DNA of 64,000 bases. Source: Vermamoeba vermiformis. Taxonomy: Eukaryota. The stretch is taken from the NCBI GenBank assembly GCA_045837725.1, contig JBEWZL010000244.1, positions 1 through 64,000 of the forward strand, in the 5' to 3' direction. The notes under the pieces are model-generated. The model saw only the letters and a program-made list of their open reading frames with translations, had not been told where the DNA came from and did not search any database. The position numbers and the translations under genes were made by a program. How positions within the stretch are numbered: position 1 is the stretch's first letter; each line of letters starts with the position of its first letter. Positions 28,199 to 63,288 of the stretch are shown here, piece after piece.

Positions 28199-28477
28199 GA
28201 GCAAAGTAAATAGTCCTCACACCAATTATGCTTGAGGTTGAGTATGAGGATTAGGGTTGATCGGGAAGCAACTCAACAAGCATGCGAGCGTTAGCCGAAG
28301 TTGTGTGGCTCAAAAATATTTTTGCCTCGACTCAACGCCAAGCCCGCTTAGCTCAGTCGGTAGAGCGCACGGCTCTTAACCGTGTGGTCGTGGGTTCGAG
28401 CCCCACAGCGGGCGTATTTCTTTTTTTTTTGCTTGAAGAGCGAGCACGCAAACAACGAACTGCAACAAACAAGTCTG
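28199..28477 (+). repeat. tRNA-Lys cassette, left arm of inverted pair 1
   Basis: Reverse-complement match to 31832-32162, lacking the 47 bp at 32069-32115. Confidence 0.9.
28342..28414 (+). tRNA. tRNA-Lys(CTT)
   Basis: 73 nt. Acceptor GCCCGCT/AGCGGGC, anticodon arm CACGG-CTCTTAA-CCGTG, T-loop TTCGAGC, oligo-T terminator. Confidence 0.97.
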
Positions 28478-28633
28478 CTTGGCGTCCAATCAAGAACGCT
28501 GTCGAAATATATGTCCTTGCGGCGTGCAATTTTTTTTTGTCGACCGCGGAATTTGGCAACTTTTCAAATAATTGGCCTTTTTTTAAGTGCTGTTTCCTGC
28601 CGAGTACCTCAAAAGAATCGCGAGAGTTAAGAA

Positions 28634-29933
28634 ATGACACAGTTGTATCTTCCGCCAGAAGTGTGGTGCAACATTCTCTCGTACGTGCGAGATATTGATG
28701 AGGTTGTAGTTGCCAAGAGAATCAATCGCTTATTTTACAATGAAATGAAAGATAAAGACCCGTTATTGCTTGTGCCAGATGTTAACTGGGAAGCGTTAAA
28801 AGGTATTTTAGAAATTAATTAAAAATAATGCAATTTATTTATCTGAAAATCTTGTGCCTCGTGCAATTAACGATTTTAAATAGGAAATATTAGATATTTA
28901 TCGCAACGACGAATTTATACCGCGAAGCGTGAACAAGTGCTGGAATAGTACGTTGAACAGATCTTATAAACTAATTTTCCTTGCTTACTTTCAATCTTAG
29001 TTGGCGAAGTAATCAAGTCTCCGATGTGCTGAGAGATGCGGAAAGTCCTGCCGACGTGGCGAATAGATACTTTGTATTTAAAGCCTTGTTATTAAGTACT
29101 CGTGAGGTCGACAAAACACAGGCTATTTATCGCAAATACGAACTCGCAGCACCAGAGAATATCATTACCTCGAGTCAGTTCGTATGTATTAGTCATTATA
29201 TGGCTTAACGCTGACCTTCTGTTCGTAGTACACGAAATTGATCCTCGATGACGACTGCGTCAAAACAAAGCTTTACGTAGTAAGTTAGTAATAATAGATA
29301 TTGCTTGCATTATCAACATCTAACGAAAATTTGCTTAGTGGGACATTGACTCGGTAAGTTAAGCAAAGCAGGAGCGTTAATTAGGGTTAGGGTTTGACTT
29401 TCATTTAGACCGAGACATGCGTCCAAATACCGCCCATCTACTTAAACTTTGCCAATGCACTCTTGATGACATTCAGCGTCAACAATCGAGAGTCGTTCAA
29501 ACTGCTCATTGAACGCTGCATCAAGATCATGGGCACTTTTTATTCAAGAAAGTCAACGGTGCCGCCTCTCTTGTACCTCGTTGGATTGCGCGGAAAAACC
29601 GACGGAAAGCACCGAGTCGTGAAGGCAAAAGACATTGAGGTATGGTTCGATCTGCACTTTGACACGTGTCATTCACTAACCTGCGTCTAGCTCGTATCGA
29701 AAGTGTTCAATCTCAAGTACTTTGAAATTCCCGATAGCGCCGATGCAGTTACAGAGATGATGAACTCAATCACCGATGACATGCAAAAATCTGCCGCGTA
29801 AGTCTCTCGAGTGATTACTGTTACGACTTACCTGTCAATTTGCAGTGGGAAATGGGTCGCCGGAGAGCAAGGCCTCAGCGTGCTGCAAACAGCTGAACCA
29901 ACGTCTACGAAGAGATGGTGCAATGTATTGTAA
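28634..29933 (+). CDS. F-box + degenerate Ras-like domain with CAAX
   Basis: F-box LPPEVWCNILSYV. GTPase-like segments FKALLLSTREVDKT, YV|WD, LMTFSVNNRESF, LYLVG and LKYFE. Ends CNVL*. Confidence 0.65.
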
Positions 29934-29976
29934 ATCCAGCATCTTATTGTTCGTCCTTAACGTGCCAATAACAATC

Positions 29977-31661
29977 TTACTGCATCATTAACACGACTTC
30001 TAACATCTTCTTGTAACTCGCGTGATCAATTGACTTGACGATTTCTACGTTCGGTTCTTTGCCACTCATTTTGCCCCAGTCTATCAAATGTCAGTTTCTA
30101 CGACACTCGCAGGCAGTCAGATTTTGCTCACCAAACACTGTCTGGCCTCGTGAATATTGGCCGGCGAGTTCGACTGTGCCGTACACCGACTCGCGAGACT
30201 GGATCAACTCGGGCTTCAGAAACGCGGCTACAGCCACTACGTCAGCTCTGTGCAATCGTGATTAGTTCTGCAAACAGGTTTTTCAGCATGAATCAGTTAC
30301 TTACGAGATGAAAACCTCGCGAAGTTTGCCGCGCACGAGTGACTCATATTTGGCCATAATAGCGGCCATAAACTTGCCGTTATTGGTCGTGTTGTGTTTA
30401 ATGTACTGAAGGCACCGTTAGATTTCATGGCAGCTTGCTTCGTGGAACCGGATCTTACCTTGTCAAACCAATCCCAATCAATGCCACATGCCACCGCTAA
30501 CTCCCACGAGATCATTTGTACTTTAGGGAATTGTTCGAAACATATTCTAGCTGCTTCAGGATCGGCATACCTACGTTTGAAAATGTCATTATTACACGTG
30601 AATGTGACGCCCATGGTGCTGTCACTTACACATTCCATTCGCTTGTGAAGCTTGAATTACCGAGTGCTTGATAGGCACCAGCCATTGAGATCAGTTCTGT
30701 TAGTATTGTTAATTACTGACTTCAAAAATATCGATGGACTGTCGTACCTCTGACGCGGTTGGGAAGTGTCGGATCTAAACAAACAGCCAAAGCAACGTTC
30801 GTGAAGGGACCTACTGCTAATTAATAACATACTCGTATATATTATGGCATACCAATAGTAATCACATAGGTATCAGGGTGTTGCTTTGTAAGTTCGATTA
30901 ATGCTTGAGCCGCGTGCATAGGTTTTGGCTTTAAATTTTCATGACCCAAGTTGGAGTTGCCCAAGCCATCGGTACCATGGCCTAGTAGGCGAGTCGTAAA
31001 TGCATAATTTGATACGAGATCCATCATAATGACGATTACCTTCCCAGTTCGGAGGTGCGAAGGTGCCCAGGAGAGGTTTCGGAGCACCAGCATAGAACGG
31101 AATTTCTTCGGTCTTAGTTAATTCGAGGACATATGAAACATTGCGCAGTACAGCTGTAGTGAGTTAAACAGGAATTAGAAAGACAAAGGTACGCGGATCG
31201 AGACCTTAAGTCACTTACAGCCCAGATGAATGTTGCCGGATACGCATGTGATGCCGACCACTTCTACAGCTCCTAGTGAATAGTCGCCTTGGCGGGTCTT
31301 TTTGTGGGCTTCGAGCAAAAGAAGCAGAGCGAAGGCGCTTTGAAGAAATTAGCAAGTGGCTGGCAAAAGTCAATAGAAAAAAATTTAGAAGGCATGAGCA
31401 TATTTACAAAGCTGCGCATTGTACTCGTAATGAATCCCGCCTCTGCAGAGAATTTTTTAAAAAATAATTAAATTAATTTCAACTTGAAAAGAGATTTGAC
31501 CAATTAAAGTCCTTACTAGTGAGGGTGTATTAACTCAATTTTGTAAAATATAATGACAAATTATCAATGCAGCTAGCATATTACTCTGACAAAATTGAGT
31601 ATGTCTCTTACTCATCTACGCCACAATCAGTATCGATAATGACCTTTCTGATGGTGTTCAT
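29977..31661 (-). CDS. Inosine-uridine-preferring nucleoside hydrolase family protein
   Basis: KVIIDTDCGVD, GITCVSGN, HGTDGLGN, I|GPFTNVALA, ADPEAARI and VELAGQYSRGQT. Confidence 0.9.
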
Positions 31662-31822
31662 GACTCAAAGTTCCAACTACTCAAAGGTCTTGTTGCGTAT
31701 TGTTGTAGAGAAGAATAAAAAGTATGTTTTTTGACACGATTGATGTTTGTTAATAATAACTTAAGTCTTTCCGTATCCCCGCGCACCGTAAAGATGCAAA
31801 AAATAACGACACGTTCGTGCTT

Positions 31823-32162
31823 GTACACAACCAGACTTGTTTGTTGCAGTTGGTTGTTTGCGTGCTCGCTCTTCAAGCAAAAAAAAAAAAAAGAAATACG
31901 CCCGCTGTGGGGCTCGAACCCACGACCACACGGTTAAGAGCCGTGCGCTCTACCGACTGAGCTAAGCGGGCTTGGCGTTGAGTCGAGCCAAAAAATATTT
32001 TTGAGCCACACAACTTCGGCAAACGCTCGCATGCTTGTTGAGTTGCTTCCCGATCAACCCTAATCCTCGCTGGCCTGTTGCCGTCCTCTCCGCTCAAACT
32101 CTCTCTTAGTGCGCGATATTCAACCTCAAGCATAATTGGTGTGAGGACTATTTACTTTGCTC
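31823..32162 (-). repeat. tRNA-Lys cassette, right arm of inverted pair 1
   Basis: Inverted copy of 28199-28477. Its downstream flank matches the 60351 copy further, to ...ggttgtgtac. Confidence 0.9.
31899..31971 (-). tRNA. tRNA-Lys(CTT)
   Basis: Exact reverse complement of 28342-28414. Confidence 0.97.
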
Positions 32163-32332
32163 TACGCCCTCATTCGCAGAGGACAGCAGTTCTTGCGGAG
32201 GTTGGCTGGTTCTTGTCACTGCGTAGTCTGCTATTGAGATCGCAACTGCTTGGTATCAAAGGGTGTACTAGGCTGTGGACTCGGATATCTGTCTCGGATC
32301 GCGTAAAATGGCAGAATTTCGAAACGTGAACG

Positions 32333-34591
32333 TTACTCTCGCAAATTCTTCCCTTGCTCTTCCCCTTTAATTAATCAGTATTTTTCTTGCAATAACAAAC
32401 CCATACCAATTATCGCAACAGCTCCATTGAAGCCTACGCTTTTTTGCGGGATTAGACAAACTCGACGGCCGTCCGCTTTGTACACTTCGAATTGCTTTTT
32501 GTGAACTACAACCGATCAGTCACCATTGTCATTCCGAGCCTTGAGCTTATTACGTACCTGAATAGACGGTCCTGTCGCATTTGTTGCAGTATCTTTCGTG
32601 TTTTGTCTGTCCCACTGGCAAGTTCTGCCAGAATAGCGGACAATCATCGTGCTTGTGACAATTTTCAATCGGGTGCAAGAAGGTGCTACAACTAGACTGC
32701 ATTTGATCCAGCCTTGACCGATAAAATCTCTTCCAAGAAGCGACAGGCAGGTTCGGATTTTGCAACGGCCATTTTTTCAAAAACAACGCCTTCCAGATGA
32801 AATTGTCATTCGTGTAATTCAACCAAGTCTTGCACACCTGCATCACTAATAAGTTTTTCCGCGATTTTAACACTTTTGCGAACCTGGCGTAGCAATACTA
32901 AGTCTGCAGGTGCTCGAGCCAGCCACGAAAGCAATAATAGCGGTATCTCTCGGGGAACTTCTTCCAAATAATTCTTCCGCTCGTTTCTATAATTAGGAAC
33001 GCTGTTCAAATCAAATAGATACGGTCCTCTCATGTGAGCTTGGAAACGAATACTGGACTGCTTCGTGAAACATACTCCGAACGAATACTTGTTGTTTGTC
33101 GATATCGATATCGGAACTGTCAAGCCTAATAACCACAGTGTCAGAAACCATGCTTGTGGGCTTGGTCTACGTACGCTGCATGACTCCATTATGCGTCACA
33201 AACAACCTCGTTGAGTTGTAGCTGTCCAACAAAATGCCCATTCCCACGGTATCACCTTCGATATCACATTAGCGTCAGTACACTTTCAGAAGGAAGTTAC
33301 ACCTTACCAGGCTGTATAGGCGTTAGAGCGGCCATCGGGTGATGCAAAGAAGCGTTGTAAACCTAAGTTTATCGTTAGAATTGGGGCCATAAACCAACGA
33401 CCTACATACCACTCCGTCGTTCAAGTAGCCTGTGGTATCGTGTCCGAGCAATTGTGCTTGAGTCTGGTGATTCATATCTAATATAATTCCGACTTTTTCT
33501 GCGCTGTTAAAGGCCAAAAATGTCACCTCGAAGTACGCGTCATCAAGTGGTTTGTCGTTCAATCCTGTCAAATCCAAGTAGCCTTTTGTGACTAAATTCA
33601 TATTTGCAGGACAAGCGGACTCGTTGTTGAACGTTAAAGTATATTCGTGGGACTTTTCATCGTATTTCAGAACGTCATTCAACAAGTCAATGTCGAGGGT
33701 CGCGGTGTCACCAAGATATTGCCCCAAAGAACATTTTTCGCACTCTGAGTACTCCATACACTCGTAGCAAATGCTGGATGTTATAAATTTGTCTATAACA
33801 ACATTGCATTTGCCACAGTTGATTTGACCATCGAGGCGCCAAGGATCTCCGTGGTAACTTAACTTTGTTAATACGTGCGGATGATACTTCGACTTTATCC
33901 TCCTGTTGAATATAATACGGCTGCTAGCGTTACATGTGTGGCACAAAGTCCATCCGTTGCAAAATTCGCACGAGAAATATCCTGGGACAGATCTGGTAAA
34001 TAAAGATGTTAGTTGTATTTAACTAACTTACTATAGCCCACAATCGCCAAGTTGCATTTGTTGCATTTCATTCCTTCAATTTTCTCTTTGTATTCTGTCA
34101 ATGGATGCGGATGTAGCGCTAAAGCATTGCAACGGTCTTTATAAAATTGAATTAGCGGAACCCAGCTGCTTAATTCCTTTGGATCCTTCAAAGTCACGAT
34201 TATTAATAAGAAACGAGTGATTATTTACTCACTTCTCCTGGTAAGGGAGTAAACTCGATATTGGAACGAGTGTTCTTATAAACAAACGACAACCCGTTTC
34301 CATACGTGTGTATGTTGAATATACTCTCTATATAATACTTTCTATAAGTGTTAGTTGGATTGCTGAATAATAAATTAAAAAAATATTATTTGAAATAAAA
34401 AATTAAGTTAAGTTGATTACTGATAATTAATGTATCGCTCATTAATAATTAAATCTATATACCTTTTTAAGGTCTCGAAAGGGCAGATCGATTTCCAAGT
34501 GTGTTGTCCATAATCTAGCAGTAGCCTCAGTCTTGGCGGGCAAAAAATCAGTTTGTACCAACGCCTTAGTTTGGCGTAGTAACTTTTCCAT
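32333..34591 (-). CDS. Cys/His-rich + SPRY + F-box protein
   Basis: HPHPL..CNKC and HPHVL..CGKC (DC1/ZZ-like). YFEVTF..VGI...GYLNDG and GDTVGMG (SPRY). VPREIPLLLLSWL...VCKTW...IWKALF (F-box). Confidence 0.65.
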
Positions 34592-34888
34592 TCACTTGCA
34601 CCACCTGTGTAGTTTTTACGGCGAGTTCAAAACAAAGATCCTGAACCACCGAAGCGCGCTAATAATGGTATTTCTTTCTTAAAAAAAAACAAGCAGTAGC
34701 AATGTCCATGGTATTCCGTGTTACTATCAGATCAACCAAGATTGACATTCTGGTCAAATTCGCAAAACTCGCCTCTATTTGGCAAAGCTTTTTTTTTTCC
34801 TTTCGCATAATTACTTACATTCGAACAAATGAACCACAAGGCTAATATCCGACGCAACTGTGACAAGAACATTAACTACGAGTAATTT

Positions 34889-36450: not shown

Positions 36451-36521
36451 CTACCGGCTCTAAGGAATAAACTCCATTGGTGCTCCAATAACGAGAGTTA
36501 TGTTCCGTAAAAGGAAAAATT

Positions 36522-38797
36522 TTATTGCGTGGTTTCGGTACTATTAACATTATTGGTTGTTTGAGCTAGTGGCCTTGATTTGCCGTTAAAATTGAGGTTA
36601 TTATTATTCACATTACTATTCACATTGTTGTTGTTTTTGTTGTTGCGTACTGGCACGCTAGTCGTTCGCCGCAGACCACCAGTGTTGTTATTCACATTTG
36701 TATTGACATTGTTGTTTTGTGGTTGGCGCGCTGGATTAGCCCAATTTACGCGTTGATTTGTATTGTTATTGCTAGTAGCGTTTGTGTTGTTGTTATTGCT
36801 TGGCACTTGACTAGCAAAAGGTGTTGAAGATCTGTTGCTCGTGGCACTCGCGACCAAGTGTTGATTTGAGTCATCGTTCATCGCATCAAAGTCATCAACT
36901 TCTTCAATATTAGCGACGTATGAGCCAGGTCTGCGAAGGCCAGTTTGCATTTGGCTGTAGGGCGGAAGATTAGGGTGATCCATGGCCGGTCCAGGTCCGT
37001 ATTGTTGTTGATTGCCATAATAAGGATTGCCACCGTTTCGTGCCAACTGTTGCTGATTTCGCAGCAAAAGTTGCAATGTTTGCTCGTCAATTTCTTCGAC
37101 TAAATTGGCAGGGAATAAACCTGTCTGGCGTTGACCGTTCGGGTATTCCAATTCTCCTTCCCACCACTGTTCGAAGGGCTTAGCGACGACTGTAATAAAT
37201 TCACCAGCTCTGAATCGCAAGTCATTGGGACTGGGGCTGTCGTAGTCGTACAATGCGCGGACAAAGAATGGCTTGATGGGTCCTCCAGCGGCGACTTGTG
37301 ACGGATCTGGCTTTCTGAAGAACGAAATGACTTTGTTGATAGCGTAAACAGCCACGGGGATAGTGACGAATGACAAGCCCAAAAGAGCGATTAAAGTGCC
37401 AACAGCTGATGCGCGGTGTTGTGGTTGATCCATTGGTCCTCCAGCAGCAGCGGGATTTTCAAAAGCTTTGAAACTTTTCATGTCAAATCCGGCTTGCGCG
37501 AGCTGATCCTCTTCAGTTTGACGACCAGTCAGTCTTCTAAATACATTGAGCATTTTCTTAAATAAGCTCCAAACAATTCTGAACACTGCAATGCCTGAAA
37601 TAGCAAAGCCGATCTCGCGGTACAGATGCGACACGCGTTCAATCAGATTGATTACTGAGAAGAACGAGCCGTGCACGGCTTGAAAATTTGCATCTAATAG
37701 TGACGAGAACCGAGCAAAGCCTAAGAAAAATAAGTCGTGTAAGTGTTTGTTGGTTTCGCAAGTTACCGTTACAAAATGATTGATCTGTTGAAATTAAGCA
37801 ACTTACCTTCAGTTACTGCGTGGAAGTCGCTCATCCAATTAGAAGGTCCTGCTAATGCAGATCCGAATCGACCTGGAGGCTCGTAACGGTCTAATAAAAA
37901 TGAAAAAATAATATTAGCAAAATTGAATTTTGGCAAATCTTTTTCTTTCTAATCGCTCAATAATTGCTATAGTAATTGTCTACAATTAATTCTATACTCG
38001 CCAAAAATAGCAATAAATTGATATTCAACTTGGTTGATGAAAATAATTTTTGTTTGCCGTTCAAGAAAAAACTTACCATAACTGGAGCCATAACCGCCCA
38101 TACCATAGCCCGAGCCGTAGCTCGAGCCATAGCCACCATAACCGGATCCATAGCTCGAGCCGTAACTTGAACCATATCCGCCGTAGCCAGATCCGTAACT
38201 CGAACCGTACCTCGAGCCATAACCTCCTGCGTAGCTTGAGCCATAGCCACCCATGCCGTAGCCTGAGCCGTAGCTAGAGCCATAACTCGAGCCCCCATAG
38301 CCGCCCATGCCGTAGTTGGATCCGTAACTCGAACCGTAGCCCGAGTTAGAACCATATCTATCGTAGCCGCTAGAGCCATAGCCGTAATCGTCTGAAAATG
38401 AGAGATCAGATTGGGACTCGCAATTTGGGGATTAAACTAATGAGGGTATTATAATGAATAATAGGATATTGTAGGTAATTATTTAGGTGCCCGAAAATAA
38501 TAGATAATTATTATTGGCAATTGAAAGTGTGGATTTGTGCGGTTTGCTTGTACGATATCGAATCAACCGAAAATTGGACTTACTTCGATTGCCGTACGAT
38601 GACATACTATTTGGACTTCTATATGATGAAATTGCGTTGTCTCGTGGTGGTAAAGCTGGGGTCGATGAGGATCCGCTAGCCGTTGAAAGACTGCTACCAG
38701 CATTGGTAGTCGAATTAACAAGTGGAGTGCTCATTGTACTCGAACTGCCACCAGCTCCTGTTCGCTCCCAAGGTTTAGGAGGGCTTGTTCGTGACAT
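36522..38797 (-). CDS. PEX13: Peroxin 13
   Basis: N-terminal SPPKPWE, long YG-rich region, [16 protein letters not shown], a TM segment and an SH3 domain (RALYDY..DLRF..WWEG..GLFPAN). Confidence 0.9.
38076..38390 (-). repeat. Coding low-complexity YGSS/YGSG repeats of PEX13
   Basis: Imperfect repeats encoding [15 protein letters not shown]. Confidence 0.85.
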
Positions 38798-46322: not shown

Positions 46323-46578
46323 ACGAAGACCTTCGACCTGTCGAACAAAATAAAAGAAAATATTGGCGATACCTATTATTTCAAAGCCCGTGAATTTAGG
46401 TACAATAATTCTACTTAACGAGCTATTGATGGTATTTATTAAACTCATTAAGCAGTTATTCCACCGCAACGCTTTCGCAAAAAAGCTGCCCAGTTCTTGC
46501 CTCTGGAGTTGACCGTTGACAACTATTGTGGACGGGACAAAGAAAGCACTAGTGGCGGGAGGCAATTAATTCTCGGAA

Positions 46579-49500
46579 ATGTCAACGCAAACAAGCATAA
46601 AAGTTGACTTTTCTTTTTCACCGCTTGAACACCGCACGATGAGCACAAAAAAACGAGCAGCGAAGAGAAAAGCCGATGCGATTTCATCGGTTGATGAAGA
46701 ATCGCCTGATCTGGCAAAGCAAAAGAAACAAAAGTTAAATCCAACCGCCGAGGAAAATAGTAAAATGGAGGAAAATATCGCAGACAACGACAATACTAAT
46801 GAAGTAACGTTGGACAACGTAGAACTGCCGCCAGAAATTTTGGTGTCGATATTTTCACAGCTAGAAAATGAAGATCTTTCCCGTGCCAGCTGCGTGTGTC
46901 AACATTGGTGGCTTTGCTCAAAAGATGAAACGCTCGCATGGTTTACATTACCACCGCTGGAGTTTGTCGAGCAAACAGAGAACTACTTTAGTTTGGGATC
47001 TTTTGACAGATTGCGGGTCACTTTAAACGATATCCGTCAAGCTTTATGTAAAGGAAAACCAGAGGATCTACGTCGTATGGTTTCTTTCGGCACTTTACCC
47101 AAATCAGAGTTGAACGCTGGAAAATCCCTTTGCAAGGTAAGAAAACTGGTTGATCCACTCCTTTGCTAATATTTAACCTTTAGCTTTTGGACAAAAATGA
47201 CGACTTGATTGCAGTGATCGGAGGTTTTATTTCTTTTCCTGATCTGGACGAGACGCAAGACTATTTTAGAATTAGGCTAGCAACAGCTTCCAAATTAAAA
47301 AATATGGGAGCCAAGCCCAAAAGCCCAAAATCGCCACATAGCGAAGTCCACATTTTGATTGTAGAAGCAAACTACCGCAAGTATGTTCACCATTCACTTC
47401 GTACTACCAAACTAACACTGTCGGCGTGTCAGAATTGAAAATATTCTCCGGTCTGGCGAAGAATTTAAGGGTGCTAATATCTTGTTACACGACACCGTCC
47501 ACACGTTTTTGAATCAATTTTATCGCTGGCCTGTGAATTACCTTCAAACCTTGTGTGACCTGAAGAAGCCTTACACACCAACGGTAATATTGAGAAGCAC
47601 GTAAACCATCTTTTATTTACGTGTCCCGCAGGTACTTCCGACCATCACCGAACAGCCAGTCCAGTTGACAGGTGTCAAAATGCACAATTATCAAATCGGT
47701 GCCGTCAATTGGATGGTGAATACCGAGCAAGACAGCGAAAAAGGTATGAAAGAAAACGAGATTAAGTTGCGTAGTCGAGATTGACACGTGTCATTTTTTT
47801 TTGACAGACTACGAAGTTTCACCGTTGGTACCAGTGATTAAAGGCAGCAGTATTCTCGCCAAAATAGATCTTGAAGAGCAAAAACTCGTGTTAGTTGAAA
47901 ATGCGCATCAATACAACATCAAATTAAAGGCCAAAGGTAACTTTTCGCGAATACTGTGCATGAGCTAACGGTTGCTGCAAAGGTGGTATTTTGGCTGATG
48001 AAATGGGCCTCGGTAAGACAAGCGAGGTGCTAGGACTGATATTGTCCAATCCGATGAAGCAAGCACCGAAGAATGGCTCGTTCTTCGCGACCAAGGCGAC
48101 ACTCAGTAAGCGATAGACACGTACTGTAGCACGAAATCTAACGTACGTTAATTAGTCGTATGCCCTAACCATCTACTTGCGCAATGGGCTTCTGAAATCG
48201 AAAAACACACCGAGCCCAAATTGAACGTGCTTCAAATCCCCACCATGGCCCAGTTCAAGAAGTTCACTTACCAACAGATCTTGGACGCAGATGTCGTGCT
48301 TGTCACTGCCAATATGTTGAAGAATAAGAACTACATTGCTTATCCACTCGAGCCACATCAGATCAAATTCGGGGAAGACTCGCCGCACGAACGTGTGGAC
48401 AGGATGGATGCGTTGTTAGAGGAGCGCAAAGACAAGGCTCCTGAGAAGCTTAAAGGTGTCATTCTCGATCACTTCCATTGGCACCGCATTGTATTGGACG
48501 AGGGTCACGAGACCGTTGTCGATGACTTCATTATGAGTACGTCTATCTTAACGATATTGTTCAATTATTAACGGTTCACAGATGTCGTTAATTACATGCA
48601 AAGTACTTACAAGTGGTACGTTAGCGGCACTCCGTTCCCAAAAGTGTAAGTTGTATAAGCTATATTTTGTAGACAAACTAACTCTTTGGCGGTGTAGGCA
48701 AATCTTTAAAAAGATTCGCAAGTTTTTGGGCCTAGCGACGCCAGAAGCGCCTTCGCTTACTAACAGCAAGTTGCCCAATCTTTTGCGTGGTGCATACAGC
48801 CATGCGCGTAATGCCTACACTTTTGAGTCCTATGTTAAGTACGTTAGTATTATCTTCAACCGGTCATGGCTGACGTTGCTTTTTATAGCGAGACTTTGGA
48901 TCGGTTACTCATCGACAATTTATTCTGGCGAAATACTAAGGTAACAGTTATTATATCAAATGACGTTACGAGAGTGACATTAACCGTGGCTATGTTTAGG
49001 AGAGTATTAAAGAAGAATATAAAATGGTCGATACCAAGCAAGAACTCGTCTTGTTGGAGTTTACACCGATTGAAGCGGCAATCTACGAGGATCTTAGCAT
49101 TAAATATAAGCATCGTAATACATCCCAAAGCAATCCCTTACGGCAATTATGCTGCAAGTTAGACTACGACTGGGGCAACACGCTGGAGGACATGAGAGTG
49201 TTCATGTGCGAGCAGAAAAAGAAAGATATCGAAAAGGCCAAAGAAAACATCAAGTGGCTCAAAAAACAAAAGAAGGAAAGCAAACAGAAATTAACGCAAC
49301 CTATTTTACGTGACTGGGAACGACGGACTTGCGAGACGAATATCCGAGAATACCCCAAACAGTTAGTCGCCAGAGAACACGATTTATCAGAGCACAAGCG
49401 TATTCAAACAATATTCGATGAAATTGTAAGTGCTGAACATGATGTCTAGTTGCTGCAACTAACATTTAAATTTCGTAGAAACCACGCGACACGTCAAAGT

Positions 49501-50513: not shown

Positions 50514-53500
50514 ATGCGAACACAACTAGTGATTTTGGTTTTGGTCTCCTTAGCATCGCTGGATCTAGCCAAAATATATCAGCCCCAAGCCCCTCGGCCG
50601 TGTGGATTAGGTGATTATAGTTTCACTGACTTAGCAATTAATTGCACTACGCAATTAATCACTATCACTGATGTTGGCACGTTAACGGCTCTGCGTGTCG
50701 GCGTGATTATCGAACATCCCGTAACACCAGATCTGTACATAACATTAATTCCACCGAGTAAGTTACGTTCGGGAAACCTTTAGAAAGATTACTGGCGAGA
50801 ACAACGCTCAGATGTGATCTTAAAAATTTAATGCTCAATTATTGCAAAGTACTAGACAAAGCCTTTAGGGACAATAATAGAAATATAGCAATTATGACTG
50901 ATTGCGTTACTAATTTAAATCAAAAATTTCATTCCATAAAAACGATCAACGATCCGATTTTTATCCCAGTCTTTAATTCACACTTTCGGAATTCTGATTG
51001 TTCTTATACAGGTCGAAAGTGGTTTGGCGAATCTACGGGTGAATACAATGATACAATTTGGAACGCTAATAATTACGCTTACGGAAATTACTCAACACCC
51101 GTACTCATTTGGGGCTTTGGTGGAGGAATTTATGGCCCTGCTAATCTTGGTAAATAACAACATTATCTTCCAGCGCATCTAATATGTTTAGGTTCGAGTG
51201 TCACTGGAGAATATTTCAACATGACTTCCATGGCTGATCCTTTCTTTGGATTTGATGCTCTTTATTGGATGCCCGTTCTTAATGTTGAGAATATGACCGG
51301 AAATTTTGGAGGTGTACGTAAGCCATTTCTAATTGTTGAAGAAGCGTACTTAATGTATAAACAGAGGATAAGTGATCTCGACCAAACTGTTGCATCTGTC
51401 CTCGGAGAAGATATTGCTGGTGATTGGAACATGGTCATTGCGGATGCAGTAGGAGGAGAAAACGGCACTTTACTGCGATGGATTATCGATTTGAAATTCT
51501 GTGGTGACGGTGAAGTCACATACCCCGAGGAGTGCGATGGTGGTGCGAACTGCGATAGTTGCAAATGTGCTGCTGGAGCTCGACCCGATCCAAACAACCC
51601 TGGAGCATGCGCATCTAATAGTAGGTGCCGCCTATAATTCAAGCACGTAATCTCACATTTTATTTCAGCCTGTGGTGATCTTGTTGTGGGTGGCAAAGAG
51701 GAGTGTGACGGCGGATACGGATGCGACAATCAATGTAAGTGCGTCGCTGGATGGGTTCCTAATGCACAACGAACTGCACACTGTCAATTAGGTACGTAAT
51801 ATAAGCACAATTAAATGTAGTGAAGCTCTTCTAATTATTGGCGTAGTTGGCAAAAAGTTCACGAAGACCATCAATACAGGTTTCTATGACGGAGGGTACG
51901 AACAAAAATCATGTATAGTAATTGTATTTACGTTATATTTTGACAGATGGAATACGATTGCGCAACTTGATGTGACTGACAGCGGAACAATTCAATCCAT
52001 AAAGTTCGGAATCCTCGCTATACATCCGTGGGCCAGCGACATTTATCTTTGGGTTGTGCGCCCTGGTAAGCTGTTTACGAATCGGATTTTTAAGCTGGAC
52101 AATGGAATTAACCAATCAATAAGGTTTTAATTTCCCTGATGCCTTGCCCGTTGATTATACCTCCGATTCGTCACTCGTAACAGCTGATGAGAGCAGCGGT
52201 ACTATCAAATTGTTGGGATATTACGGCTACTACCTAGGTGCCACAGACGTCGGCAATGTTACTGCAACAAAACCTCTCTTTATTGGTGCAGCAAATGATC
52301 AAATGATCAGCGCACCGAGATTGGATCCAGCTTATCGTACAATTGAGGGCGATGTCACCGCTGCTGTAAGTGCACCATTAACACATGTCATTTGATACTA
52401 ATCGCTTGTCTAGGAACGACTTCATTCGGACAGAATCGCCTTGTTGGTCGGAACTGAATTGCAAGGTACTTGGAAAGTTGTGGCTGGAGACTGGAGTGCT
52501 GATAGCTGGTCTGGAACGTTGTTGCAATTCACAATAGAAGTTTTGTGTATGTACCAAGGACAGCTCGCGTTCATTCGCCTAACCTTTTTTGATAGATTGC
52601 GGCGATGGTATATGGAACCCTTGGCACGAGCAATGCGAACAAGTGGCTGGCTGCAATAACGCCACGTGTACTTGTCTCGATGGCTATAAGAATGCTAACG
52701 GAACTTGCAGTACGTAGATAACTAGTCCTTGAGATGGGCCTATTTAACATTGCTCCTCAGGTCAATGTGGCAACGGTAAAGTTGATCCAGGCGAGGAGTG
52801 CGATGGTACCGAGAACTGTTCCGCGGACTGCAAATGTCAAGTTGGAACTTCTGACGGCACAAAATGTGTCATTGCTAGCGGGATTGACGGTCCAGTCGCT
52901 GGAGCATCCTCCAGTGCCCTTATTGGAGGAGTTGTAGGAGGTGTTGGTGGTGCACTTGTCGCCGGTGCTATTGTGTTGATTGTTCTTGCCTCGAAAGGAA
53001 AGTTAAAGAAAAAGAAGAAAGAGGACAAAGAGGAGCTGAACCAAAGCGATGTTGAGGCCGGATCGGTTTACGGACCTATTGGCGGTGCTGATTCAAGGAA
53101 GGCCGGCAAGGCTGTTGAAATGCGTAAGTTGCTCTTTTGCTTTTAATCAGTCGTTAACGTGCTACAGAAACGATTTCGCCGGAAGATCGACTGAAAATTC
53201 CTTACCACTCCCTTGTGTTCAAGCAAGAGATCGGTGTTGGTGGCTTCGGCAAGGTGTTTGTCGGAGAATGGCAACGAACAAAAGTCGCCATCAAAGTTGC
53301 AACTGTTGCCAGTGCTGAGGACTTTTTGCGCGAGGCCAGACTTTCAGTGTACGTACCAACAGTGTGCCTTTAAAGTGTTTCTTACTGTCTTTCAATAGGT
53401 ACTTGCGACCTCATCCCAACGTCGTACAAACACTCGGAGTGAGCGTTGATGGTCAGTTCCCAGCACTTGTTCTCGAGTATTGTGCTGGTGGAAGCCTCGA

Positions 53501-54314
53501 CAAGGCGCTCTACAACCCTACAAAACAAATGAGTTACCTCGACAAGCTTCGTATCATCACAGGCATTGCAAAAGGTACGTACCATAGACGAGTTTGTCTT
53601 TCAGAAGCTTACGTCTAATTCTCAGGCATGCTTCACTTGCACTCAAACAACATTGTTCATCGTGACTTGGCAGCACGAAACATCTTGTTGTCGGGCACCG
53701 GTGAACCAAAGATCTCAGACTTTGGCATGTCTCGTCTTGTTGCTGATGATGAAGGCATGACCACTCGCACCAATGTCGGTCCAATCAAATGGATGGCACC
53801 AGAATCACTCAAATACAAAGAGTATTCGAAGAAGTCAGATGTGTGGAGCTTTGGAGTCGTTGTTTGGGAGATTGTCACTCGTGAAGAACCTTACAAGGGC
53901 GAAGATTTGATGGAGCTAGCGTTGAATATTCGTGACAAAGGAAAGACTTTGCCTATTCCCGAGTGCGAGCCTATCTTCCAGAATGTTATGAGGGACTGTT
54001 TCCAATCAGATCCGCACCAGAGAAAGGCAAGTTTGAACTTAATATCGTTTGCAATGTATTAACCCAGACGGCTATTATAGGATTTTGATGTCATTTGCAG
54101 CGAGCTTGATACTGAGCTTGAAGCGCAAGAGACGAATGGTACCGCTGCTCGTGTGTTTACCGTAACTCCCAACACCACTAATAATACCTTACCTGGTTCC
54201 AATGTTCAACTGCCAAGCAATGATGAATCAAATAGCAGTTCAAAGGACTCGTCGAGTGAATCAGAGTCTTCTGGTTCGGGATCGAGCGAATCTGGCTCCT
54301 CAGAAAGCGACTAA
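50514..54314 (+). CDS. Receptor tyrosine-kinase-like protein 1 (P-domain-like and Cys-rich ectodomain, TM, kinase)
   Basis: Signal peptide and CGDG..EECD repeats. TM GGVVGGVGGALV followed by a poly-K stop-transfer. Kinase motifs GVGGFG, VAIK, HRDLAARN, DFG and GPIKWMAPE. Confidence 0.9.
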
Positions 54315-54628: not shown

Positions 54629-57600
54629 ATGGAGCACCGTTTATTATGGCTGGTGGTCATTCTGACGATTGCAGGTCTTGGATGTGGAGAAATTTTTGTA
54701 CCTGCTGCTCCTACCAACTGCAATATTCCTGATAGCGGCGTTATAGACACTTTCGCACAATGTACTACTCAGACAATTAATATCCCTAAAAGCGGTATCA
54801 TCACAGCCGTACGAGTAGGATTCCAGATCTCTCATCCATTCGCTTCGGATGTGATGGTTGCTTTATTGCCTCCAGGTAAGTTATTATAGCATAACCACTT
54901 AGATATCTGGATCAATCAATTGAAATTAAACGAAGACTTTCGTAATTCCAAATTTATCGAATCTATGACGGCTTTAAATTGTAACCGTTGGCCGATTGTG
55001 AAACGCAGATATAAATATTAACTATAATTATTTACTCATTCGGAGAGCTGCCGAAAGTAGATCGGTACATCTGCCGAAAATGTAGCCATTTCTTTTCCTT
55101 TTTAAAATCGGCCTTTCGATCGAAATCTAATTTATTCTTACTTTAGGGCGAACTTGGCAAGGAGCTTCAACTGGCACATATGATTCAACGATTTTCTTGG
55201 ACAACAATTGCCGCCAATACTCGGATCCAACAACGGCTTTATTAACCGTAGGATATCCTGATAACGGAGCAACGCGAACTACGGATTTAGGTAAAGCTGT
55301 TTTAGCTTGAAATTTAAATCGGAATTATTTGTTGATCTTGCATCCCAGGTGATATTGCGAATGACGACTACTTTTATGTTGCCAGTTTGCAAGATCCTGA
55401 ATATGGATTCTTAGCGGACTATTTTATGGAGCCTTATTACCGATCTCAACTTACTGGCGTGTGGGGACCGGTAAGAATTAACTTTTTGGCGCCTTTTGTC
55501 TAACTCGAACTCGTTTCCACCTAGATTACACCAAGTCATGATGAGAAGTTTCGAGGCATCGCAGGCACCGATATGCAAGGTGATTGGAACCTTGTTATTG
55601 CTGATCAGTTCTCTGGCGATGTTGGCTACCTATTAAAATGGGTCATCGAAGTAAAATGTAAGAAAAATAATTTGGAGAATGGATAATATCAAAATAATAG
55701 CCAATCTGTTCGACGTACTCTCAGAATATTATGAATTTTAATACAATTTTATTTTACTTTCGTATTTTAAACAATTCAAATCCGCCCAATAGCGGGCGAT
55801 AGTAATAGATCTACTACCGCCTAATTTTTAAAATTTTACTGACCTTGTTTAGATTGCGGAGACGGTGAAGTCACTTACCCGGAAGAGTGCGACGGCGGAG
55901 CCAATTGTAACAGCCAGTGTCTCTGTCCTGCTGGTTCTAGACCTGATGGAAGCGCAGGCTGTGTTGTTAATAGTACGTAAATCTGGCGTGGTCCATTTGA
56001 TGAAACTAACAATTATTATCAGCGTGCGGTGACGGCTTTGCTTGGAACACCGAAGAATGTGATGGTGGTTTTGGCTGTCAAACAAATTGTACTTGCGCTC
56101 CTGGCTGGAAGCCACAAGGTGCTCGGAGATCGGATTGCCAATTACGTACGTGAGCAGCCATTGAGCTGAACATTATGCTGATGGGTGTTTTGTACAGAGG
56201 CTGTTAAGAAGTACAAGTTCACAACTCCCACTGCTATCCCAGATACTCAGTAAGAACAGAAAAATATAGGCGCGGCGGTCGTTAATAACGTTTAATGCAG
56301 AATGACGCAACTATTGCTCAATATCCCCGATTCTGGTGTCATTCAATCAATCAAATTCGGATTTGTTGTGAGTCATCCTTGGGCAAGTGATGTCTACATC
56401 TACGTAGTGCCTCCAGGTATGGCTTGCAAAGTCTTAAGTAGATACGAGCAATACACGAGTATTAATTTTAACCTAAACAGCAAAAGGTTCTGCTTGGGGC
56501 ACAACTTTCCCCGTGGACTACACCGAAGCCACTCAAGCTATTGCAGACTTGCCTTCATCTGATGATATTAAATTCTTTGGATTCTATGGCAGTAGCAATG
56601 GTGCGACTGACATTGGTGACACAACGAACTTAATTCCCGCTTATTTTGGTCCGCCATCTGACCCGAACTATAGCGCGCGTAGAATGAACACAGCTTTTGT
56701 GCGAATTAAAGGCGATCAAGGAATTGCTGAAAAACGACAAGCAACGAAGGCCGATTCTGTTTTAGGCACAAATATCCAAGGTAATAATACGCTAGTATGC
56801 CGTCTACTTAGCTAATGTTGCCGTTTTAGGCCAGTGGCAACTTGTAATTGGAGACTGGAGTAGCGATAACTCTGGTACCTTGATTCAGTTCGTTATTGAA
56901 GTGCTGTGTAAGACCAAAATTTCGCGCGTTGATTTGTTCTAACTTTTGAGCGTAGACTGTGGTGATGGCCTGTACAATCCACGCGCTGAGTCGTGTGATG
57001 GTACTGTTGGTTGTAATAACGCAACTTGCACGTGTATGACGGGCTACTACAATCAAAGTGGCGAGTGCCTTCCTTGTAAGTACACTAATAATGCTTTATA
57101 TATGCCGTTTCTGACTCAAATTAGACTGCGGAAACGGTGTTGTTGACAACGGTGAGCTCTGTGACAAATCAGAAAACTGCTTGGCTAATTGCACGTGCGC
57201 AAGCGGTTTCACCGCGAACAATGGTCTGTGTGCAGCTATTGTAGTCCCAGCTACAGCATCTACACCGGAAAATAACATCGTCAACACCCCTGTTACCGAT
57301 AGTAGTGCCTTGATCGGTGGTGTTGTTGGTGGTGTTGGTGGCGCTTTAGTTATTTTAGCTGTCGTCTTGATTGTGTTGGGAGCTACAGGCAAGCTGAAGA
57401 AAAAGAAGAAGAGTGAACACGACGTCGAGAACCCTAGCAATGGAATTTATGGTCCAATTGGCGGTCAATCCTCAGGCAATAACTTTACGAACAAATCTGT
57501 TGAACTCGAGAACCTAGCACCGGAAGACCGATTGAAGATTCCTTACTACTCTTTAGTGTTCAAGCAAGAGATTGGTGTTGGTGGTTTCGGCAAGGTGTTT

Positions 57601-58692
57601 GTCGGAGAATGGCAACGAACAAAAGTCGCCATCAAAGTCGCAACTGTTGCCAGCGCTGAGGACTTCACTCGCGAGGCCAGACTTTCAGTGTACGTGGATA
57701 TTTATTGCTACATGCATTACTAACCTGCTTATAGCTACCTCCGACCTCATCCCAACGTCGTACAAACACTTGGAGTGAGTGTTGATGGTCAGTTCCCAGC
57801 ACTTGTTCTCGAATACTGTGCTGGTGGAAGTCTCGACAAAGCTCTTTACAACCAGTCTAAACAGATGACCTATGTTGACAAGCTTCGTATCATCACAGGC
57901 ATTGCAAAAGGTACGTGCAGCTGGCTCATTCGATCGATTTCAGTAGCTGACCTACTCACTCTCAGGCATGCTGCACTTGCACTCAAACAACATTGTTCAT
58001 CGTGACTTGGCAGCACGAAACATCTTGTTGTCAGGCACTGGTGAACCAAAGATCTCAGACTTTGGCATGTCTCGTCTTGTTGCTGATGATGAAGGCATGA
58101 CCACTCGCACCAATGTCGGTCCGATCAAGTGGATGGCGCCAGAGTCACTCAAATACAAAGAGTACTCGAAGAAGTCAGATGTGTGGAGCTTTGGAGTTGT
58201 TGTTTGGGAGATTGTTACTCGTGAAGAGCCTTACAAGGGCGTGGATCTGATGGACTTGGCACTGAAGATCCGTGATCAAGGTCATACCCTATCCATTCCC
58301 GAGTGCGAGCCTATCTTCAAGCTTATCATGGCTAATTGCTTCAAGCAAGAGCCTCAAGACAGATCCGTAAGTTTATCTGTCTATATCAACGGCCAAGGCT
58401 AATAATTAAGCTTGTATAGGACTTTGATGTTATTTGCAGTATTCTCGACAAAGAACTCGATGAGCAAGAGTTGCACGGCCCAGTGTCGTTGTTCTCTGTC
58501 TCTAACACGACCTTGCCCAACTCAAACACAACCTTACCCGGATCTAATGTCGCTTTACCACCGGGCAATTCCATTACTGCTCAACCAAAGGACAATTCAG
58601 CTAGTGAATATAGCAGTTCTAACGACTCTGATGATGATTCAGACAGAGAAGATCCCGACTCGGAAGAAAGCTCCGAAGTGTCTACTGACTAA
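54629..58692 (+). CDS. Receptor tyrosine-kinase-like protein 2, tandem paralogue
   Basis: Same architecture and largely shared intron positions as 50514-54314, with near-identical kinase exons. Confidence 0.9.
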
Positions 58693-58902
58693 TGCTTCCC
58701 TTAATCATTAGTATACTCTATTTTGTAAATATTTAAAATTAAATTTATTCTAATAACGCTGGAACAGCTCGATCGCGTGAAAAACTTTGTTGCGGCTATG
58801 TTAGTAGCACAACTAGGAAAATTTATAAATAAGCCAAGTATTGTATCGGCGTATATAAATTATTCAAATAAGAAGCGGAAAGTCACAAACTTGTTTACTT
58901 TG

Positions 58903-60036: not shown

Positions 60037-60119
60037 GTTGGATCGCAGGTACTTGTACATATTTCTACACTTTTACGTTATTATAAACAACCAATTTGTC
60101 AAATTTGAACCTGCCGTAG

Positions 60120-60500
60120 CTTGCAGTGGCACGGACATCGCACTCCACCTGTCAGTGACGAACCTCAATATCAACCCACTAAGCAACAACAAAACCAAAC
60201 CAATCGCCACAGCAGCAAACATGTTTCGGCAAACGAGGACTGTTTGTGGAGCGTAACAGTTATTGTAACCACGATGATGCTCATAAGCATAAACTGTTGT
60301 TTGCCGAAGTAGTGTGGCTCAAAAATATTTTTCCCTCGACTCAACGCCAAGCCCGCTTAGCTCAGTCGGTAGAGCGCACGGCTCTTAACCGTGTGGTCGT
60401 GGGTTCGAGCCCCACAGCGGGCGTATTTCTTTTTTTTTTTTTGCTTGAAGAGAGCTAGCACGCAAACAACGAACTGCAACAAACAAGTCTGGTTGTGTAC
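60120..60500 (+). repeat. tRNA-Lys cassette, left arm of inverted pair 2, including a decayed 3' fragment of the 63095 gene
   Basis: Inverted match to 62912-63288. Confidence 0.9.
60351..60423 (+). tRNA. tRNA-Lys(CTT)
   Basis: Identical to 28342-28414. Confidence 0.97.
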
Positions 60501-60772
60501 TCGTCGTTCGTTTTAGGTTTTTCTGGTTGCGGCTGACTTCGTTTTTTAGAAGACGTTTCAAAATTTAGATAAAGTCAAAGCGGAAACCGTTTATTCAAGC
60601 ACCGAGCGACGCAGGAATTAGCATTACTTAAAAATCTTTGTGACATCCGATCTTACGGTTTGCTCCAGTCTTGCTCGCTTGTTTATGTCCACTTCATCCT
60701 CATCACTGAACGCCATATCAAAAGCACGCTTCACTATGGCAATCAAATGTTAAAATTGTGTGCTTGTGGTCT

Positions 60773-62622
60773 TTATGCTTTCACTCGATTTATTTCGAAC
60801 AACGATCTAGCTTGGAAAGTTGTACAACCATGCGCACGAGCGTATTTGATCAACAGCGGAAGTGAAGACCTGCACTCTTCATCGTTCCATTTGCCTATTG
60901 AGTATTCGTCAGAATGGTAGTTCAATACGATGCTGCGGTCAGATTTGCTTACATCCAATCTTTGTCAAGTATGCCATATTTGGCAAGTCATACACTGAAG
61001 CGAGATGTTCTGAAGTCCACTGAGCTCCTTGTTGTGTCAAGAAATCGAGTATTTCAGGCGTTGAATACTTTGCGGCAGTCATCATACATTGTTCCATGTC
61101 AAGATCTTCCTTATTTGGCAATTTCTCCCACAACAGTTTCAAGATCTCGATGTTCTCCGATTCAATGGCCCGATTGATTAACCGCTGCACGAGAGGAAGG
61201 TTTGATGGCGTGAGCGCTCCAAGACCGAACTGAGCTTGTATTTGCACGGGAGATTTGTTCGGGAGATTTCGTTCAAAGGCAAGTTTCAACACCTCCACAT
61301 TCCTGTTTACAATACCCCATATGTACGGATTAATCTCGTCGAATGACACTTTCACTTCATCGAGCATGAACTTGAACAGTTCAACCGAAGTCAGCGAACT
61401 TTCCGCTGCCACTCTGTACGGCACTGACATTGGGTCTGTTGGTTTAGGAAACCCTTGGTTAAGCATAAAACGAAGTGTTTGAATGTCGCCCATCCGCACT
61501 TGATCCGTCCACAAATTGTTCAAACCATTAAGTTCTTGCAAGCCGTGTTGTTGCACGATGTACTTGAAGCAGTCAAACGTCTTGGACATGTTTGGGACCG
61601 GATATGTGTTAGAATTTTCATCAGCGTAGATAAGACAATCTAAATGACCTTCTTGATTGGCGCAATTTGCACTTTGCTTTAGTGGAGCACCCTTCTGATG
61701 AGCGTACTTCAGCATCGTCAAGTCACCGAGCCTTGCTGCCTCCTCGCAGATGTTTCTCTTCCCTCTTCTAAGCTGAAGAACGCCTACAAGTCCTTTGTCG
61801 TTCTCTCCTTTCCACTGAAATTCATTCTGAATGGCGAAGTCCAAGCACTCGATCGAAGGTGTGTACGACACATAACGTTGAGTGCAGCCATTCTCGACTG
61901 CATATTTCATGCACGACAAGTGCCCGTGATACGCCATACTCTCCATAGCAGTTTTTGCTGCGTTGATGTAAACTGAAGAGTACGCTAAGAATGGATCTTG
62001 CTTCTGGGTAGTATCTGCAGGAGGGTCCCAAGGCACTCCATTCTCGTGCAAGTACTTGACCATCGACAGACTACACGTTCCCTTCGTGCATTCAAACAAC
62101 AGATCGGCGTTGAGCGAGAGGCCGTTGTTGACGAGGTGTTGCAAAACTTCCACTTGTCCGCATTGTGCTGCTACTAAACAAAGCTTCTCGGTCCATTCGA
62201 AGTGCAACGTGTTCTTAACATAGTCTAGCAGTGAAATGAAGCCATTCTTGACCAAATATTCCATAAAGTTGTCTTGATCCAGAACAAAATACTTTGGGAA
62301 CGGTCGCAATTCTTTGCATAGCTTGTACAACATAGAATTCGTTGCTCGTAGAAAAATAAAATCCGATATGCGAAGAGACTGCAAGATCACACCCCAGATA
62401 TCTTTTGGAAGCGTGGATGTGTCAAACTTAATAATAAAATGTCAGTTAGAAAAATTGTTAGACAATTTATAAATTCGGATTATGCTCGTTTAAATTATTA
62501 TCAATTAATTTATCTCAAATTTTGTCGGGATAAGATCTTACTTGACATTCGATCCTCGCTCTTTTGCTGCTTGTGTCTCCTTGGTTAATTGGATCAGAAG
62601 CCTCGTCAAAAGTTCGTTTCAT
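60773..62622 (-). CDS. F-box + ankyrin-like repeat protein
   Basis: F-box LPKDIWGVILQSL..LRATNS. Repeats such as AAQCGQVEVLQHL, MVKYLHENGVPWD and GHLSCMKYAVENGC. Confidence 0.8.
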
Positions 62623-62911
62623 GGACTTGCAATAACAAGGGGTTTGTTTTCTCGTTATGAAGTGTTTCTCAATCGATTGAGCGTGTTGACGATTAAAAAT
62701 TGGGTACGGACGTGTCTGTCAACCCATCAACGCTTAAATGCACCACATTTGTTCATCAAAATGGTGGATCGAACGCGAACAGGGAGTTGATAGCGAGTAC
62801 TGGACTTCAATGGTTTGCGCGTGTAGAACGTGACAAATTCTACAACATTGAAGCAACGTGCAGTGCGGAGTTACAGGTTGCGTCTTGCACGAACTGCAAG
62901 CTAACTCGCTC

Positions 62912-63288
62912 GTTCGTTGTTTGCGTGCTCGCTCTTCAAGCAAAAAAAAAAAAGAAATACGCCCGCTGTGGGGCTCGAACCCACGACCACACGGTTAAGA
63001 GCCGTGCGCTCTACCGACTGAGCTAAGCGGGCTTGGCGTTGCGGAGAGGCAAAAATATTTTTGAGCCACACAACTTCGGCAAACAGACCACAGTTTATGC
63101 CGTTATGAGCATCATCATGGTTACAATAACTGTAACGCTCCACAAACAGTCCTCGTTTGCCGAAGAAACTTGTTGCTGTGGGGATTGGTATGGTTCTTGT
63201 TGTTGCGTTGTGGGTTGATATTGAGGTTCGTCACCAACAGGTGGAGTCAATACTTCTCCAAACGGTGCGATACCCATGCCACTGCAAG
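62912..63288 (-). repeat. tRNA-Lys cassette, right arm of inverted pair 2
   Basis: Inverted match to 60120-60475. Confidence 0.9.
62960..63032 (-). tRNA. tRNA-Lys(CTT)
   Basis: Exact reverse complement of the other copies. Confidence 0.97.

Follow-up and report, generated by a model that had tools for sequence, protein, structure and literature searches.

The window analysed here, a 64 kilobase (kb) stretch of the Vermamoeba vermiformis contig JBEWZL010000244.1 (positions 1 to 64,000), carries four identical genes for transfer RNA (tRNA)-Lys(CTT), arranged as two convergent pairs that each enclose a short protein-coding segment. Every tRNA gene lies within a longer repeat arm, and the two arms of a pair are inverted copies of one another; we designate them P1L and P1R (left and right arm of pair 1) and P2L and P2R (left and right arm of pair 2). 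The four genes are best explained as a small local family that was generated by DNA-level duplication of a short tRNA-bearing segment, and not by a mobile element. It is probable that the pairs arose through local inverted duplications at tRNA genes, with no mobile element involved and with the enclosed genes as bystanders.

Detection of tRNA genes by two methods, ARAGORN and Rfam, covered the whole window, to which all pair and arm counts and all statements that a match occurs nowhere else refer. Both methods returned exactly four tRNA genes, all of them tRNA-Lys(CTT), with 0 mismatches over the 73-nucleotide (nt) tRNA sequence (4/4 copies identical). In both pairs the tRNA genes at the two ends of the segment are transcribed in opposite orientation, and the tRNA-to-tRNA spacing is 3484 nt for pair 1 and 2536 nt for pair 2, in agreement with the original prediction of four identical genes in two convergent pairs with gaps of ~3.5 and 2.5 kb. 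On the 3' side of each tRNA, the sequence TATTTC is followed by a run of 10-14 T, which is a normal terminator for RNA polymerase III (Pol III). The surrounding DNA is eukaryotic, with short GT-AG introns and ~42% G+C. A special codon demand for this tRNA was considered and dropped, the 3589 codons of clear exons containing 96 AAG vs 85 AAA lysine codons.

Arm limits were established from gapped pairwise alignments and a four-way alignment, giving arms of 306-390 nt with 89-98% identity. Common to all four copies are 52 nt upstream of the tRNA, the tRNA itself and 46 nt downstream, and P1L, P1R and P2L have ~30 nt of further common sequence downstream. Homology between the pairs is confined to this core, from -52 through the tRNA to +46..+77 (173-204 alignment columns, 94.9-96.5% identity). 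Beyond it lie private flanks, for which blastn found matches within their own pair and nowhere else; in P1L, for example, the upstream part consists of a 91-nt pair-specific flank (28199-28289) followed by the 52-nt common core (28290-28341). The pair 1 arms are 94-98% identical, with a 47-nt stretch (32069-32115) in the right arm only, and the pair 2 arms are 91% identical over 340 columns, falling to 78% in the outermost 37 nt. In pairwise comparison of the copies, the longest exact match is 98-108 nt and is centred on the tRNA, as is the perfectly identical block of 100-105 nt within each pair. In both cases, a segment is thus bounded by inverted copies of an otherwise low-copy sequence, as indicated by the private flanks and, for pair 1, by read depth. 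Among the inverted repeats of at least 40 nt in the whole window, 11/12 belong to the tRNA cassettes and the twelfth is a 73% match, so the paired inverted layout is not due to chance. Earlier estimates of the flanks (~50 nt upstream, 45-75 nt downstream, and a pair-specific extension of 100-150 nt in pair 1 and ~180 nt in pair 2) proved accurate, with errors of no more than a few tens of bases.

The -52 limit of the common core lies near position -47, given in a passage of PMC5391098 as the upstream edge of the TFIIIB footprint, and the two may be connected. Loose contig ends from a DNA run (X1) and an RNA run (X21) contain other tRNA-Lys loci whose upstream sequence is related but different: an A-run, ATTT and then TCAACGCC directly before the tRNA (28341), in different letters. 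This hints that the upstream pattern is a conserved Pol III promoter element in the organism, so that part of the upstream similarity among the four copies may be a family-wide promoter feature. A metagenome scan with a 21-nt invariant piece of the upstream core gave 0 matches.

The private flanks also provide a relative age for each pair. Counting aligned bases only and excluding the tRNA, the private upstream flank is identical at 95/97 positions (97.9%) in pair 1 and at 170/191 positions (89%) in pair 2, and pair 2 is therefore older than pair 1. Private flank homology that is particular to each pair requires a minimum of two separate local events, each centred on a tRNA-Lys gene, as the original prediction had it in deriving each pair from its own local inverted duplication. 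Pairwise identities in the 52-nt upstream core are 90-96% for the six comparisons; the pair 1 core appears to have split off at around the time that pair 2 arose, the sites informative for the order of events being few.

The two sides of pair 2 have separate histories. Its private flank is the 3' end of a protein gene, encoding a beta-helix-like protein. P2R alone adjoins an intact upstream gene on the same strand, the stop codon of which lies 62 nt before the tRNA. P2L carries a headless, decayed copy of the last ~55 codons of this gene (60142-60312), in which the middle of the frame is disturbed and the stop has moved, and nothing of the gene is found upstream of this fragment. Because the gene is intact at P2R and reduced to a decayed 3' fragment at P2L, the upstream side of pair 2 is best read with P2R as the original and P2L as the copy. 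For the downstream side the reverse appears to hold. The piece +52..+77, which lies just past the P2L arm (60475-60500), matches P1R at 26/26 bases and P1L at 20/21; blastn found it in P1L, P1R and P2L and found no counterpart near P2R, making P2L the original-like copy on this side.

This split ancestry is predicted if each pair was left behind by a small inversion whose breaks at a tRNA-Lys gene were staggered, an explanation that we favour tentatively, at a little short of an even chance; an inversion-related origin in general is plausible. In the proposed pathway, one breakpoint of each inversion would lie at a tRNA-Lys gene, and the inverted segments would be the ~2.4 and 3.3 kb between the arms. 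One DNA strand would be cut on each side of the tRNA, with 0.3-0.4 kb between the two cuts; replication fork stalling and R-loops make tRNA genes the likely sites of breakage. After filling in of the overhangs and rejoining, each end of the segment would carry the sequence between the cuts, in inverted orientation, with one copy retaining the old outer neighbour and the other retaining the old inner neighbour. Subsequently, the tRNA would be kept identical by purifying selection while the flanks decayed, with the enclosed genes as bystanders. In pair 2, the expected division between old outer and old inner neighbour is matched by the intact gene at P2R only and by the +52..+77 piece at P2L only, and an identical pattern would result if pair 1 had been copied from P2L. 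For pair 1, this comparison of neighbours has no internal outgroup.

Several points count against staggered-break inversion. The split in pair 2 would also be explained if the pair 1 core had been copied from P2L soon after P2L arose, and the presence of the ~200-nt core at two loci 32 kb apart needs a third event that lies outside the model. The upstream core is star-like, with private changes in each copy and none common within a pair, albeit with small counts. The outer limit of pair 2 is fuzzy (78% identity over the last 37 nt), so that microhomology at the junction is unreadable, and two cases are too few to show that tRNA genes are preferred break sites here.

The main rival comes close to the inversion reading although, taken by itself, we consider it rather unlikely: a 0.3-0.4 kb tRNA fragment would have been copied and inserted a few kb away in inverted orientation, leaving the inner genes unmoved, either through template switching at a stalled fork or because a double-strand break nearby captured a released fragment. 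The resulting anatomy would be the same as that left by an inversion, and P2L does resemble a partial gene copy inserted between two unrelated genes. The extra core copy 32 kb away is needed in any case, which implies that this genome can make such short copies, and passages of PMC7990762 describe tRNA genes as fork barriers and fragile sites. Under such copying, however, the presence of +52..+77 at P2L but not at P2R calls for an extra assumption, namely that pair 1 derives from P2L or that P2R has lost the piece. Both outcomes being inverted, where random orientation would give this ~1 in 4 times, weighs little either way.

The identical 100-105 nt tRNA-centred block in each pair could alternatively point to old inverted pairs that have been kept alike by gene conversion or by exchange that flips the inner segment. 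Passages of PMC7990762 report yeast inversions flanked by tRNA genes (tDNAs) in opposite orientation, and an exchange within the tRNA would swap the downstream flanks and could thereby yield the pair 2 split. Neither exchange nor conversion can create flank homology, however, and a prior duplication would still be needed. Outside the tRNA the arms are 2-11% diverged and contain indels of 19-47 nt, which argues against ongoing homogenisation of the flanks. We regard this as an improbable account of the pairs.

A mobile origin was examined at the arm and core junctions. No terminal inverted repeats were found at core or arm ends on inspection of the junction sequences, no A-rich tail was found at any arm end, and no convincing target-site duplication was found at the junctions. 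On either side of the core in P1R, 13-15 nt that are imperfectly repeated in direct orientation were recognised by eye, in 1/4 copies and after many junctions had been inspected. No transposase was detected by Pfam among the inner open reading frames (ORFs), which comprise an F-box gene, a hydrolase gene and an ankyrin gene. Upstream, the homology reaches 143-300 nt beyond the tRNA 5' end, and downstream it continues beyond the T10-T14 terminator. Because it spans both the Pol III start and the terminator, a Pol III transcript cannot be the copied unit. A retroposed Pol III transcript or short interspersed nuclear element (SINE) was excluded on the same evidence, namely homology reaching 52-300 nt upstream and past the terminator with no A-rich tail. 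The tRNAs of P1L and P2R lie 158 and 62 nt, respectively, after a same-strand stop codon; these distances suggested a retrocopy of an mRNA 3' end, which was rejected for want of an A-rich tail.

Some features would nevertheless suit a tRNA-carrying miniature inverted-repeat transposable element (MITE), a SINE, or a composite transposon with the cassettes as its ends: the ~200-nt core ends sharply at -52 on its upstream side and recurs at two loci separated by 32 kb, the direct repeat around P1R could be a trace of insertion, and a retroelement that encodes reverse transcriptase, RNase H and tyrosine recombinase lies in the window. Against such an element stand the junction results above, the nature of the inner genes, and copy numbers that remain low outside the tRNA, with a pair 1 flank at single-copy depth or below and a downstream core that on a rough reckoning is present in ~3-5 copies, close to the four already in the window. 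A MITE or composite transposon was rejected because the flanks are low-copy and because terminal inverted repeats, a convincing target-site duplication and a transposase were all absent from the junctions and inner ORFs examined, and the composite-transposon or cassette reading offered in the original prediction finds no footing here. We judge a mobile element of any of these kinds to be very improbable.

The retroelement itself occupies window positions 1-4900 on the minus strand, with 223-nt repeats of 96% identity at its boundaries (121-343 and 4654-4876). Its ORFs encode reverse transcriptase and RNase H (1557-3239), a tyrosine recombinase (phage integrase) is weakly matched at 554-1648, and a perfect repeat with 337-nt spacing is present at 1-100 and 338-437. 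With a G+C content of ~50%, vs ~42% elsewhere, it looks DIRS-like.

Copy number was read from DNA sequencing runs in the form of short-word contigs, none of which can bridge an identical block of 98-108 nt and the depths of which are contig means and hence only indicative. In DNA run X1, the summed word depth of unique sequence was ~550-1000, and the private flank of pair 1 had a depth of 355-421 at two places, corresponding to single copy or below. Bins holding a tRNA reached 4761 and 7888, and the places at the tRNA 3' end gave 14757-16601 at one copy and 2187-2211 at the other. On a rough reading, these values correspond to ~20-27 genomic copies of tRNA-Lys and ~3-5 copies of the downstream core, about the four in the window. 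Run X1 also resolved two haplotypes, 2-5% apart in non-coding stretches of 27500-33000; at 29139-29480, it contained two contigs with about 18 differences in 342 nt in addition to indels. The organism is thus probably diploid, or the culture mixed.

These runs also bear on the possibility that the pairs are an artefact of a collapsed or mis-joined repeat. The arms are repeats, no single contig spans the whole stretch, and the best DNA runs (X1-X4) may be the assembly's own sample. However, the arms differ by substitutions and indels and have unique junctions on both sides, and run X1 covers 30/30 bins. Two water metagenomes from another study contain pieces of the pair 1 outer flanks and interior at 95-100% identity and a depth of 2-4, pieces that carry no information on the orientation of the inner segment. 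A variant of the P2L-type downstream flank, a second haplotype among the loose ends, is present in both water metagenomes and in X1. The water-metagenome pieces and this flank variant argue against misassembly and for some age of pair 2, and of all the explanations considered an assembly artefact is the most improbable.

In RNA run X21, 109/113 reads had only part of their length on the stretch, in most cases by way of A or T runs, and the inner genes had a depth of 0-2 with no intron joints. A joint from 31453 to 31879, on opposite strands and between two A/T runs, was taken as low-complexity noise.

Table 1 Positions of the tRNA genes, repeat arms and associated protein genes in the window
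Feature	Positions	Strand	Basis	Remarks
tRNA-Lys(CTT), P1L	28342-28414	+	ARAGORN, Rfam	
tRNA-Lys(CTT), P1R	31899-31971	-	ARAGORN, Rfam	
tRNA-Lys(CTT), P2L	60351-60423	+	ARAGORN, Rfam	
tRNA-Lys(CTT), P2R	62960-63032	-	ARAGORN, Rfam	
P1L, pair 1 left arm	28199-28504	+	Alignment	T10 terminator, downstream core and flank
P1R, pair 1 right arm	31807-32162	-	Alignment	T14 terminator
P2L, pair 2 left arm	60107-60474	+	Alignment	T13 terminator
P2R, pair 2 right arm	62912-63301	-	Alignment	
Inner gene A, pair 1	28634-29933	+	Splice-site search model	8 exons, ~301 residues
Inner gene B, pair 1	~30000-31662	-		Nucleoside hydrolase (IU_nuc_hydro); several exons, approximate limits
Inner gene, pair 2	60939-62630	-		Ankyrin-repeat protein; 500-residue main exon 60942-62441 and probable short upstream exon
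Beta-helix-like protein gene, P2R outer neighbour	63095-64000, open to window end	-	ORF	

The segment of pair 1 encloses two genes (Table 1). The N-terminus of inner gene A has a weak F-box match (28634-28819 on the plus strand, Pfam E 0.003-0.005, below cut-off). In a motif reading of the spliced model, its C-terminal part is Ras-like, lacks a P-loop and ends in the CaaX-like sequence CNVL. If the model is right, an F-box joined to a P-loop-less Ras-like domain would be an unusual combination. Inner gene B matches PF01156 on two exon pieces within 30300-31117 on the minus strand (E 3e-4 and 5e-4), below the Pfam cut-off because single exons were scored separately. As side observations, two tandem TTAGGG telomere-like units are found in an intron of inner gene A (29376-29391), and one TTAGGG unit occurs in the private upstream flank of each pair 1 arm (28250-28262 and 32052-32064).

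The main exon of the pair 2 inner gene matches Pfam Ank families (E 1e-9, in 60942-62441 on the minus strand). The protein has 13 relatives at E <= 1.3e-50, the best with 51% identity, and belongs to a small lineage-specific family. No F-box was matched in it by Pfam at E <= 0.01, its F-box-like N-terminus being read by eye. The gene content given in the original prediction was accordingly borne out for the ankyrin and nucleoside hydrolase genes by Pfam and weakly for the F-box of pair 1; the F-box of the ankyrin gene has no Pfam match, and the "pseudo-GTPase" is a reading of motifs. The beta-helix-like gene beside P2R, the 3' end of which makes up the pair-specific sequence in each arm of pair 2, encodes a protein with a hydrophobic C-terminal tail. 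No Pfam match was found for it, and weak Atlas leads pointed to Beta_helix and Pel9A-like clusters (0.90-0.91).

F-box-like ORFs also occur outside the pairs, at 20182-20859, 32553-32897 and 46570-47166, and F-box genes are a locally abundant family. Enrichment of F-box genes within the pairs was considered and rejected, a rough count not exceeding chance (about 5 F-box-like ORFs in 64 kb, 3 of them outside the pairs). Since such ORFs lie outside the pairs as well, the enclosed F-box genes look incidental, and their description as "cargo" is not upheld.

tRNA-Lys genes might be recurrent break-and-duplicate hotspots in this genome, a putative reading that we consider improbable. Short segments between mirror-image Pol III genes might then be flippable, putatively by exchange across the 100-nt identical tRNA blocks, or they might be insulated by Pol III, giving a protected, switchable niche for lineage-specific F-box and ankyrin genes. 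If true, such a system would be a tRNA-anchored counterpart, in a eukaryote, of invertible segments.

Elsewhere in the window are two tandem paralogous receptor-type kinase genes (51158-54059 and 55850-58400) with the tyrosine-kinase signature HRDLAARN / PIKWMAPE. Their kinase exons are 89-95% identical (53179-53914 vs 57520-58254), and their extracellular parts contain repeated cysteine-rich units, with copies at 51500, 52766, 55855 and 56025. A Gly/Tyr/Ser-rich repeat coding region (37960-38436), with 51-nt units in 6 copies at 38088-38345, lies just upstream of a Pex13-like SH3 gene (36525-37793) and is probably its glycine-rich N-terminal exon. A metagenome scan with the neighbouring 6-phosphogluconate dehydrogenase retained 80 loci, the best 75% identical and none related, which were left out of the comparisons; the scan was aimed at a 93%-identical relative that a protein search had found.

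Taken together, the pairs are most likely scars left by two small rearrangements with breaks at tRNA genes, a pattern for which yeasts, flies and social amoebae provide precedents. Specific to this locus is that a whole 0.3-0.4 kb tRNA segment was duplicated, leaving functional-looking copies at both ends, and that two such duplications of different age lie within 35 kb. If the pairs did arise by inversion, the window would provide two differently aged examples of tRNA multiplication coupled with reshuffling by micro-inversion in a little-studied eukaryote, and the breakpoint duplication would serve as a built-in direction marker. Convergent tRNA pairs around genes can be explained without a transposon, which is useful for repeat annotation in protist and fungal genomes. 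The locus alone opens no new question, the same logic being documented in flies and yeasts.

The closest parallel is found in Drosophila. According to passages of PMC1885836, inverted duplications occur at 17/29 fixed inversion breakpoints, with a median length of 321 bp, a range of 46 bp to ~1.9 kb and a mean identity of ~88%; they often include decaying partial gene copies and were explained by the staggered-break model of Ranz et al. 2007. The present pairs likewise consist of two inverted 0.3-0.4 kb copies bounding a segment, with a decayed partial gene copy, and their arm lengths and identities fall within the range reported there (PMC1885836). In pair 2, only one breakpoint region would have been duplicated, as in 12 of the fly cases in these passages (PMC1885836). 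The fly inversions described are large and confirmed by outgroups, whereas the inner segments here are only 2.4-3.3 kb and their inversion is putative. Unlike in the fly examples, the duplicated stretch included a tRNA gene both times, and the tRNA copies look functional.

A second parallel comes from yeasts. Among four Saccharomyces species, every inversion is reported to have tDNAs of opposite orientation at its flanks (Kellis 2003, cited in passages of PMC7990762), and the same source describes yeast tRNA genes as fragile sites of replication-fork pausing and R-loop formation. Yeast tRNA genes are also stated to be 3x enriched at evolutionary breakpoints and at sites of gene gain (Gordon et al. 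2009, in part of PMC2675101). As in these accounts, opposite-orientation tRNA genes lie at both ends of a short segment in the window, and lineage-specific genes tend to adjoin tRNA genes. The shared flanks of 150-300 nt prove duplication of a whole segment here, a feature on which the yeast passages cited are silent. The earlier statement that no comparable layout was known thus gives way to the tDNA-flanked yeast inversions (passages of PMC7990762) and the 17/29 Drosophila breakpoints (passages of PMC1885836).

Social amoebae provide a third comparison: in Dictyostelium discoideum, nearby tRNA gene pairs with identical anticodon and sequence are described (passage of PMC8163159, citing the 2005 genome paper). 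The window holds nearby, identical tRNA genes of the kind described in that passage. Dictyostelium is far more A+T-rich than the window, whose ~42% G+C points to another lineage. A functional counterpart is offered by centromere 1 of fission yeast, where tDNAs within inverted repeats act as chromatin barriers, as demonstrated by mutation and chromatin immunoprecipitation (passages of PMC2040200). There, a chromatin domain is delimited by Pol III genes that are placed as mirror images; here, tRNA genes in similarly mirrored positions enclose ordinary euchromatic genes.

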